From a virus (lineage: Duplodnaviria; Caudoviricetes), in the IMG/VR virus record IMGVR_UViG_3300032227_000318, positions 32,001-96,000 of that record: a stretch of 64,000 bases of DNA. One strand, written 5' to 3'. The notes under the pieces are model-generated. The model was not told the DNA's origin and searched no databases. It saw nothing but the letters and a program-made list of their open reading frames with translations. The position numbers and the translations under genes are program-made. Shown in pieces: positions 2,888 through 45,750 of the stretch (position 1 is its first letter; each line of letters opens with the position of its first letter).

Positions 2888-3558
2888 TATAGATTTTCCT
2901 GTTTGTATAGGTGTATTTTTTCTAACAAGCTTTGAACATATGAATTCTTATCACGAATGAAAACTTGTGGTTGTTCCATAAAATCAACCGATATGAGAAT
3001 TACGATTTGATTTATAGGTTCATTTACCAATTCTTCATACATCAGAGCATAAGCAGTTCCTTGCTCAAAATAATTTTCAATCCATTCTGCTTTCTTTTGA
3101 TTGCGTGAGGTCTTGAAGTCGATGATAGAAGGAATACCAGCAAACTCTGCTATGCAATCTGTCCTTCCCGCAACACCAAGCTTTTCGCTGTACAATGGAG
3201 ACTCAATATAACGTATGTTGTCGACCAAGTCAAGTGTTTCTTGCATATCACGAAAAGATTGTTTCATATCTGGCATAACACCATTTAGAAAGTCATCTTC
3301 ATTGCGGAGATAACTTTCCATCATGTTATGGAATTTTGTGCCTCTTGTGGCCGCACGGTTCATGATGAGATCGGCTTCTGCGTTGCCAACCCTATTGCGC
3401 CATTCAATCAGAGACTTCTTTTTGAAGTGACTGAGTACTGTAGTAACAGAAGGAAGTTTTACACCATTTGGTGTAATGTAAAACCTCTCTCCTGTGCTTT
3501 CATCAGTATCAAGCTGCTTCAGTTCTGGAAGCCCATCAACATAATTAAACTTCTTCAT
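2887..3558 (-). CDS. PD-(D/E)XK (Cas4/RecB-like) exonuclease
   Basis: PSVTTVL, RGTKFH, AGRTDC, IIDFKTS, Q..AY. Confidence 0.88.
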   Translation of the reverse strand: MKKFNYVDGLPELKQLDTDESTGERFYITPNGVKLPSVTTVLSHFKKKSLIEWRNRVGNAEADLIMNRAATRGTKFHNMMESYLRNEDDFLNGVMPDMKQSFRDMQETLDLVDNIRYIESPLYSEKLGVAGRTDCIAEFAGIPSIIDFKTSRNQKKAEWIENYFEQGTAYALMYEELVNEPINQIVILISVDFMEQPQVFIRDKNSYVQSLLEKIHLYKQENL

Positions 3559-44996: not shown

Positions 44997-45074
44997 TGGT
45001 GCAAGGTCTTGGAATCGAACCAAGTTCTTCCGCTCTTCAGGCGGACGCTGAATTACCAAACTAGCTCACCTTGC
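44997..45074 (-). tRNA. tRNA-Phe(GAA), 5' end overlapped by endonuclease ORF
   Basis: TCCGC-CTGAAGA-GCGGA, CCA. Confidence 0.92.
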
Positions 45075-45688
45075 ATTATTCTATTATACTCGTTTTTCTC
45101 AATAATTACAATCTTTTTTTCTGGGTGCTGTTTCAGAACTGCTTCCATCTTTCTCTTATCATCGCCCCACCAGTAACCTTTTATCTCAAGGAATATATCT
45201 TGATCTATCAATTGTAGATCAGGCGTGTACGATTTTTTCTTGCCGTCCAATTCATATTCCCAAACATCTCTATGAACAGCAGGTTTATACCAATCAATTC
45301 CTAACTCATCAAGTTTCTTGGCTATGTTTAGTTCCCAAGTGCCTTGTAGTTTCTGTCCTTTATATTCAAACCATTTACATTTACCGCCACGATTCTTTAC
45401 ACTCTGTTCAACAGACAATCTTTTACGAGCTTCTTCCCCCATTCTTGTCGGAACAAATGAACCATTAGCTATCTTAGCCTGTATTGTCTGGCTGTTTTTC
45501 TCAGCAGTTCTTCGTATTTCTTCAGAAGTTTCTTTAGTCAGCCCTTTTCTGTGGCTAGGACGACCTTTAGATTTGCTTCCTGTTTTTTGTCCGTGAGCAA
45601 CGCCGTCTTTTGAATGCGATCTCCAAACATGAGCAACCTTAGCTTTATCGCTCTTTAGTTCTTTGTTACATATTGGGCAATAGATCAT
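45053..45688 (-). CDS. PD-(D/E)XK (TnsA-like) homing endonuclease with N-terminal zinc finger
   Basis: CPIC..H...H; QGTWE, YTPD...LEIKGYW; TATAAATA at 45705-45712. Confidence 0.8.
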   Translation of the reverse strand: MIYCPICNKELKSDKAKVAHVWRSHSKDGVAHGQKTGSKSKGRPSHRKGLTKETSEEIRRTAEKNSQTIQAKIANGSFVPTRMGEEARKRLSVEQSVKNRGGKCKWFEYKGQKLQGTWELNIAKKLDELGIDWYKPAVHRDVWEYELDGKKKSYTPDLQLIDQDIFLEIKGYWWGDDKRKMEAVLKQHPEKKIVIIEKNEYNRIMQGELVW

Positions 45689-45715
45689 AGTTCCTCCTAT
45701 GATCTATTTATATAA

Positions 45716-45750
45716 CAGGCGTATGTACGCACCAGCTATACCAAGGCAGC
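45716..45750 (-). pseudogene. 5'-half tRNA remnant truncated in the anticodon loop
   Basis: GCTGCCT-TG-GTAT-AGCTGGTGC-GTAC-A-TACGC-CTG then late promoter. Confidence 0.75.

Follow-up and report, generated by a model that had tools for sequence, protein, structure and literature searches.

We propose that a short segment in the tRNA array of a T4-like phage is a free-standing homing endonuclease cassette that cleaves the resident form of a tRNA-Phe gene in an allele-specific manner and carries a tRNA-Phe gene of its own. Comparison with relatives that lack the cassette gives good support to its insertion at a tRNA-Phe site and to the replacement of the tRNA found there. Cleavage, its target, the immunity of the carried tRNA and the timing of expression are inferred, and we consider the proposal likely. 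The mobile unit would consist of a tRNA stub, a late promoter, a regulatory hairpin, an endonuclease ORF and the cassette's own tRNA-Phe.

Layout of the cassette

The genome that hosts the cassette is that of a freshwater T4-like phage. The stretch of DNA analysed here, called the window (64,000 nucleotides), corresponds to bases 32001-96000 of a 110-kb IMG/VR virus record that is about 67% complete. Its DNA polymerase is of the T4-type family B and is about 50% identical to the cyanomyovirus enzymes, its tRNA array comprises 28 tRNA genes, all on the minus strand, and freshwater metagenomes are the main source of contigs that contain parts of the stretch.

Reading along the minus strand, the end of a 48-codon ORF is followed by the stub, the box TATAAATA, a Shine-Dalgarno sequence with an ATG, a 211-codon ORF and a tRNA-Phe(GAA). 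The stub (45716..45750, -) was identified by its identity to intact relatives as positions 1-34 (35 nt) of a resident tRNA-Phe(GAA), and from 45750 to 45716 it can be folded into the acceptor 5' strand, the D-arm, the 5' strand of the anticodon stem and C32-U33-G34. Directly after the break there is a sequence match to the T4-type late-promoter box, TATAAATA (45712-45705, -), and a predicted 12-bp hairpin (45679..45708, -) lies over the Shine-Dalgarno sequence and the ATG. The endonuclease ORF (45688-45053, -), recognized as an open reading frame and by Pfam, encodes 211 aa and ends in ..QGELVW*. The complete tRNA-Phe(GAA) carried by the cassette, referred to here as type C, has an encoded CCA and was called by ARAGORN at 45074-44997 (-), with an Rfam tRNA score of 35.5 bits against a gathering score of 29. 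It overlaps the ORF by 22 nt (45074-45053), such that tRNA positions 2-22 encode QGELVW and the stop codon.

The components that an earlier note on this DNA had listed, namely a tRNA 5' half broken in the anticodon loop, a late promoter after it, a PD-(D/E)XK endonuclease and a complete tRNA-Phe with a different acceptor stem whose first 22 nt form the end of the ORF, were all recovered, although for the promoter this applies to the box and its activity is inferred. The difference in acceptor stems is evident from pairing, since the 3' acceptor strand of the downstream tRNA forms 7/7 pairs with the tRNA's own 5' strand and only 4/7 with that of the stub.

The stub and the uninvaded site

All 35 nt of the stub recur without a mismatch at the start of intact tRNA-Phe genes on at least 14 contigs among the IMG/VR matches listed (L025, L027, L028, L033, L074, L080, L092, L093, L097, L116, L122, L127, L132 and L134), a match that is far beyond chance. 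Past these 35 nt the intact genes have the remainder of the anticodon loop and a 3' half that pairs with the stub-type acceptor strand. When IMG/VR was searched for the resident type with the 19-nt D-arm core of the stub as query, 112 contigs were found, 111 of which carry an intact tRNA-Phe(GAA); the exception is itself a cassette locus (L060). Compared with the phage's own record, the intact tRNA of L027, located at 3006-3081, gives a 100% match over positions 1-35 only.

The uninvaded site could be identified in syntenic relatives, which was the check suggested in the earlier note. In three contigs (L063, L072 and L073) the upstream 1178 nt align collinearly with the window (87% identity), the similarity ending exactly at 45716, and an intact tRNA-Phe follows, with tRNA-Met 4 nt further on. 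The same arrangement of intact tRNA-Phe and then tRNA-Met is found in L027, at 91% identity to the window, and the upstream gene and the downstream tRNA-Met are common to the window and all four relatives. A stretch of 43 nt in these relatives corresponds to 840 nt (45715-44876) in the window. Furthermore, an independent freshwater run (X6) yielded a contig that passes from the upstream flank through 45716 into the resident 3' half without the cassette, together with a separate contig of the cassette. Since the syntenic relatives have the intact gene, the stub is the front of the resident tRNA-Phe, cut after G34. The earlier note had allowed that it might belong to a tRNA-Asn, which was not borne out: the letters that follow C-T-G belong to the promoter and vary with it in relatives, and 111 of the 112 contigs with the D-arm motif specify a GAA tRNA-Phe.

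Within the 840-nt stretch, a 35-codon ORF (44982-44875, -) separates the cassette tRNA-Phe from tRNA-Met. Neither L063, which has a 4-nt gap there, nor the other cassette loci have it, and since it is not common to these loci it probably does not belong to the mobile unit.

The encoded nuclease

The 211-residue protein contains, in order, an N-terminal C2H2-like zinc finger, a helical linker with NUMOD3-like repeats and a C-terminal PD-(D/E)XK domain resembling T7 endonuclease I. Pfam Phage_endo_I (PF05367) matches residues 119-204 with 31.9 bits against a cut-off of 29.1, and it also matches all 23 members of the family. The match of the N terminus to the C2H2 finger in Pfam is weak. No GIY-YIG domain was found in the Pfam scan, which returned Phage_endo_I and the zinc finger only, and in the same scan NUMOD3 was not significant in the window's own protein. 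Among the 23 family members NUMOD3 is matched in eight, and in two a helix-turn-helix (HTH) replaces the finger. Such swapping of DNA-binding modules is typical of homing endonucleases.

The catalytic residues are E119, P156-D157 and E168-x-K170, and in an alignment of the 23 relatives E119, D157, E168 and K170 are invariant. When the profile of these relatives was compared with the PDB it matched T7 endonuclease I (1m0d) with an E value of 6e-11, the alignment running through the catalytic Glu, Pro-Asp and Glu-x-Lys. An AlphaFold (AF2) model with a pLDDT of 85 comprises an alpha/beta nuclease core, the finger and a pair of long helices; the six C-terminal residues, which are dictated by the tRNA, are modelled with low confidence and lie beyond the endonuclease I core. 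Foldseek gave no match for this model at an E value of 0.001 or better. Its best rows, weaker than that threshold, were T7 endonuclease I (2pfj) and the catalytic domain of I-Bth0305I (3r3p), which is merely consistent with the result of the sequence profile. At the level of profile and motif, the T7 endonuclease I-type fold of the nuclease can be taken as confirmed, its cleavage activity being an inference.

Occurrence at other loci

Relatives of the ORF were found at 21 IMG/VR loci with identities of 35-94%. A tRNA-Phe overlaps the 3' end of the ORF in 12 of them, and the preceding tRNA and the upstream neighbours all differ. When IMG/VR was searched with a motif for the cassette tRNA's unusual 5' part, 60 non-redundant tRNA-Phe genes of type C were found, of which 27 are joined to a full ORF ending in GELVW. 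A further 5-7 retain only the last 12-30 codons (such stumps are attached to the type C tRNA in L149, L157, L160, L179 and L217) and about 25 have no trace of an ORF. Stages of invasion, degeneration and loss are thus visible side by side. The comparison of these loci supports the recurrence of the cassette and its tRNA as one unit in many tRNA-array contexts.

At every ORF-bearing locus inspected there is a tRNA 5' half that is broken after position 33/34, before a NATAAATA box. The D-arms of these stubs are of three types, the window's type, a second type and a canonical bacterial-like type, and each stub keeps its own acceptor and anticodon-stem letters up to position 33/34. The second resident type is represented in IMG/VR by 117 non-redundant genes; about 110 of these are intact, and the seven that are broken are all cassette loci. 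In L005 the downstream tRNA is chimeric: its 3' acceptor strand pairs at 3/7 positions with the 5' strand of the cassette and at 6/7 with the local stub, the switch falls in the universally conserved T-loop, and ARAGORN calls no tRNA there. Since the 3' strand pairs with the local stub, the junction in L005 is placed in the T-loop, which is what a short conversion tract is expected to produce. When cassettes of different contigs are compared, the similarity starts inside the stub and ends at the CCA of the tRNA, and Logan contigs from three other samples end at the same stub and CCA boundaries. We infer from these alignments that the junctions bear the marks of double-strand-break repair from a cassette-bearing donor. 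Between the window and L002 the cassettes are 92% identical and the flanks 80-89%; since the cassette is only modestly above its flanks, a very recent transfer is not demonstrated.

Two further arrangements were seen. In L209 an intact canonical tRNA-Phe (1870-1945) is kept beside a cassette with a second-type stub, which counts against the proposal. In L011 (2689-3342) a distant lineage of the ORF (38% identity) is fused to a second-type tRNA-Phe, with a canonical-type stub upstream, and because of this arrangement the tRNA-Phe types seem to displace one another in layers.

It may be asked whether the cassette is simply the remnant of a single event. A one-off illegitimate or old insertion, inherited vertically and with a nuclease that is inactive or has been domesticated as a junction resolvase or for the exclusion of competitors, would involve no homing into tRNA-Phe today. 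That T7 endonuclease I is a structure-specific resolvase and not a homing enzyme is in keeping with such a history, as are the absence of data on cleavage by the window protein and the modest difference between cassette and flank identities in the window and L002. However, it would have to accommodate stubs of three resident types, each matching the local functional allele up to the junction, and a window stub that is 35/35 identical to intact alleles while the flanks are only 87-91% identical. It is also difficult to reconcile with the variable presence of the cassette among close relatives, the decayed forms of the ORF and the exchange of zinc finger and HTH as sequence-specific DNA-binding modules. 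We consider it improbable.

The carried tRNA

Genes of type C are characterized by G8 and G14, an enlarged D-loop and A46. All of them lack the canonical U8-A14 tertiary pair, having G8 together with G14, and the letters at these two positions are at the same time part of the codons in the ORF tail. Despite variation at positions 1-5, the acceptor stem pairs 7/7 in 16 loci through compensatory changes. Given this paired stem and the consistent A46, type C appears to be a maintained and presumably functional tRNA despite G8 and G14, although its aminoacylation is inferred. No other tRNA-Phe accompanies the cassette tRNA in the 110-kb record, and it is likewise the only one in 24 of the 26 cassette loci that have any tRNA-Phe call.

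Strong differences between the resident and cassette alleles are found in the D-arm, in the acceptor stem and at position 46, where type C has A and the resident type G, and the 13-22 pair is also changed in type C. The anticodon loop is the same in both, and 3' of the anticodon the consistent differences are limited to position 46 and the acceptor strand. With so few consistent differences 3' of the anticodon, discrimination between the alleles would need the D-arm or position 46. The roughly 25 type C genes without an ORF trace often stand directly after another tRNA, and their existence suggests that type C may be an older natural tRNA lineage that was adopted by the nuclease and did not originate with the cassette.

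This raises the question of whether the tRNA is the selected cargo. Type C could be advantageous in itself, for example by resisting a host defence that targets tRNAs, and the nuclease could be a neighbour that aids its spread, as SegB of T6 amplifies tRNA-Tyr. A benefit driven by SegB through tRNA genes has been documented (PMC13096335), type C persists widely without the ORF (about 25 of 60 genes), and its unusual tertiary positions (G8/G14, A46 and the changed 13-22 pair) form a coherent set. On the other hand, the two types do not differ in the anticodon loop, where anticodon nucleases usually act, and the stub, the fixed breakpoint and the chimera are signs of nuclease-driven conversion whatever the value of the cargo. 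An account centred on the cargo has in our judgement only a small chance of being the right one, and it is compatible with homing and does not exclude it.

A split or interrupted gene was also considered, in which the stub is a 5' exon, the promoter, the ORF and the type C 5' half are a degenerate group I intron or other intervening sequence, and the mature tRNA joins the stub to the downstream 3' half. The break right after U33/G34 and the 6/7 pairing of the L005 stub with the downstream 3' acceptor strand would suit it, and group I introns in bacterial tRNA genes do sit in the anticodon loop, one of them encoding the PD-(D/E)XK enzyme I-Ssp6803I. Nevertheless, no group I intron or other ribozyme match was found by Rfam in 42.5-52 kb at E values up to 1, and in 16 of the 17 loci only 2-5 of 7 positions of the stub pair with the 3' acceptor strand, whereas the cassette's own 5' strand pairs 7/7 with compensatory changes. 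The cassette contains no complement of the stub's acceptor strand, and the empty-site relatives have a different 3' half. The lack of a ribozyme match and the acceptor-pairing test exclude an intron or split tRNA, leaving very little residual doubt. An assembly chimera is ruled out by the recurrence of the same junctions across numerous independent contigs as well as Logan contigs from other studies, and a tandem duplication of tRNA-Phe followed by insertion of the ORF is ruled out by empty-site relatives that have one resident-type gene and no type C copy.

Model for spread and expression

If the cassette spreads by homing, it would do so in mixed infections. The nuclease, aimed by its zinc-finger and NUMOD3 modules, would cut the tRNA-Phe gene of a competitor between position 33 and the T-loop, and the break would be repaired from the cassette-bearing genome. 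The 5' half of the recipient gene would pair with the donor stub, and the recipient 3' half or the DNA downstream would pair with the donor tRNA-Phe. Since this form of repair pairs the recipient 5' half with the donor stub, the stub would serve the element as its left homology arm. At the left end the recipient would keep its own letters until homology with the donor stub stops; DNA synthesis would then copy the promoter, the ORF and the type C tRNA, and the right end would rejoin within or beyond the 3' half of the tRNA. The expected product has the recipient 5' half as a dead stub ending at U33/G34, together with the promoter, the ORF and the cassette tRNA. The carried tRNA would keep the phage supplied with tRNA-Phe and presumably escapes the enzyme, its immunity being inferred. 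Because recipient letters survive in the stubs and in L005, the cut would lie between about position 33 and the T-loop, an interval that assumes that the stubs derive from the recipient. Since the last seven codons of the ORF lie inside the tRNA, the nuclease and its replacement tRNA cannot be separated by recombination.

Regarding expression, TATAAATA has six matches in the window, all on the coding strand. This count is not above chance in the window (6 observed, 3.5 expected), and the promoter reading therefore rests only on the strand bias and on conservation in relatives, every related cassette inspected having a NATAAATA box 20-30 nt before the ATG. The region 45760-45660 has a predicted folding energy of -28.5 kcal/mol (z -3.2), and none of 200 shuffled sequences folded as well. 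In the hairpin (45708-45679) the Shine-Dalgarno sequence is in the loop and the ATG in the stem, and the 5' arm extends over both the box TATAAATA and the probable late start. The same design, in different letters, is found in six relatives (L002, L004, L005, L009, L156 and L165). In T4, hairpins of this kind limit the translation of intron and seg ORFs to transcripts from late promoters. By analogy, read-through transcripts of the cassette would fold the hairpin over the start codon and transcripts from the TATAAATA box would lack its 5' arm, and expression of the nuclease is probably late only, the timing being inferred. Among the sequencing runs listed as containing parts of the stretch, the two from RNA cover only a small share of it.

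The overlap of ORF and tRNA allows a further possibility. Release of the tRNA by RNase P would remove the last codons of the ORF and its stop codon, and a given transcript may then yield either the tRNA or the nuclease. The window encodes a phage tmRNA (1678-2064, -) with the tag ANDNFIASKAYALAA. It is possible that such a tmRNA could clear a non-stop nuclease product and so provide a built-in control of dosage.

Comparison with known systems

Self-splicing introns or inteins are regarded as the main way by which homing endonucleases enter conserved genes. An example is I-Ssp6803I, the PD-(D/E)XK homing endonuclease of a cyanobacterial tRNA-fMet group I intron. The cassette resembles it in that an enzyme of the PD-(D/E)XK class is tied to an insertion in a tRNA anticodon loop, but I-Ssp6803I is intron-encoded and tRNA function is restored by splicing, whereas the cassette has no ribozyme match and a nuclease domain of the T7 endonuclease I type. 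T7 endonuclease I itself (PF05367; 1m0d, 2pfj) has a homologous catalytic domain with the same E, PD and ExK residues. With about 150 aa it has no DNA-binding modules beyond this domain and acts as a structure-specific Holliday-junction resolvase, whereas the cassette protein also has a zinc finger, replaced by an HTH in some relatives, and NUMOD3-like repeats and, in its genomic distribution, behaves like a mobile element.

SegB of T4 and T6 is a free-standing GIY-YIG homing endonuclease in a tRNA gene cluster, which recognizes a T-loop motif shared by many tRNAs and has no isotype preference (PMC2330249; PMC13096335). Like the segB gene, the cassette nuclease gene is free-standing in a T4-like tRNA array and is present or absent among close relatives. 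SegB also targets tRNA genes and drives the preferential inheritance of itself and of neighbouring tRNA genes, which for the cassette is inferred. Unlike SegB, which is a GIY-YIG enzyme encoded between tRNA genes, the cassette encodes a PD-(D/E)XK enzyme, sits inside one tRNA gene and leaves a 5' stub; it is also tied to a single isotype (Phe) and translationally fused to the replacement tRNA.

By analogy, the nearest conceptual precedent is provided by the mORFs of fungal mitochondria, which carry a replacement gene end and have been described in atp6 of Allomyces macrogynus and in atp6, atp9, cox2 and nad3 of Glomus (PMC3630166). There, as in the cassette, an endonuclease ORF without an intron lies in a gene and brings a diverged duplicate of the displaced part, by which function is kept, and the native part is left alongside as a dead copy that matches close relatives. 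The fungal elements occupy protein genes, carry the 3' end (the C-terminus) and encode LAGLIDADG or GIY-YIG enzymes. In contrast, the cassette targets an RNA gene, its native 5' part lies upstream, a whole tRNA is supplied and the ORF overlaps that tRNA, so that it may be viewed as a mirror image of the mORFs in an RNA gene.

In the literature that could be searched we found no description of cassettes composed of a stub, an ORF and a fused tRNA, only SegB and the mitochondrial mORFs; coverage was incomplete and most subscription journals were outside the search. Neither megablast nor blastn matched the cassette DNA to cultured or GenBank phages, in which only distant protein relatives were found. 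If the proposal is correct, the cassette represents a third, splice-free route into RNA genes, in which the resident copy is destroyed and a diverged working substitute is brought in, and would amount to a 'cleave-and-rescue' drive that arose in nature. Some of the mosaic turnover of phage tRNA arrays, and of the odd non-canonical tRNAs within them, would then be accounted for, and T7 endonuclease I-type nucleases would join the enzymes used for homing. The stubs and chimeras would constitute an unusually clear fossil record of conversion tracts.

A broader notion can be offered only tentatively, and we think it rather less likely to be right than wrong. This is that phage tRNA arrays harbour a general, undescribed class of 'cut-and-replace' drives, in which unrelated nucleases (endonuclease I-type and HNH) insert beside the anticodon of a specific tRNA without an intron, retain the 5' half of the victim for homology on the left side and bring along an immune tRNA, recoded but of unchanged identity, that is fused to their stop codon.

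Related elements

The window contains another cassette built in this way, at 47852-47246 (-), with a tRNA-Ile and an HNH nuclease unrelated to the first enzyme. Its stub (47852-47821) is broken after U33, and its 32 nt equal the first 32 nt of the intact, syntenic tRNA-Ile(GAT) of L027 (780-853). A ACTAAATA box, a 164-aa HNH ORF (47799-47305) and a very different tRNA-Ile (47319-47246) follow, the tRNA overlapping the end of the ORF by 15 nt.

A third ORF, also HNH (48840-48424; region 48874-48342, -), lies between tRNA-Ala and tRNA-Thr(TGT), two genes that are adjacent in L063 and L027, and with the tRNA-Thr it forms a further cassette on this plan. Its stop codon TAG supplies G1 of the tRNA-Thr, and it is preceded by TATAAATA and a start-codon hairpin; of a stub there is only a weak D-loop-like trace.

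Among cultured phages, the Dhakavirus IME341 of E. coli (L219; NC_055742) encodes an endonuclease I-type ORF, gp139 (1436-2200), that is 28% identical to the cassette protein. The 3' end of gp139 overlaps a tRNA-Arg(TCT) by about 38 nt, and before it are a partial tRNA-like stub ending in a C-T-T-C-T loop, a AATAAATA box and a start-codon hairpin. Its slot upstream of tRNA-Arg is the one that segB occupies in T4. This cultured coliphage relative makes the idea of homing testable. In Acinetobacter phage AM101 (L218) and the huge phage LR756501 (L344), distant relatives of the nuclease with 28-33% identity lie inside tRNA arrays beside other isotypes and without overlap; the wider nuclease family is associated with tRNA arrays and is not specific to Phe.
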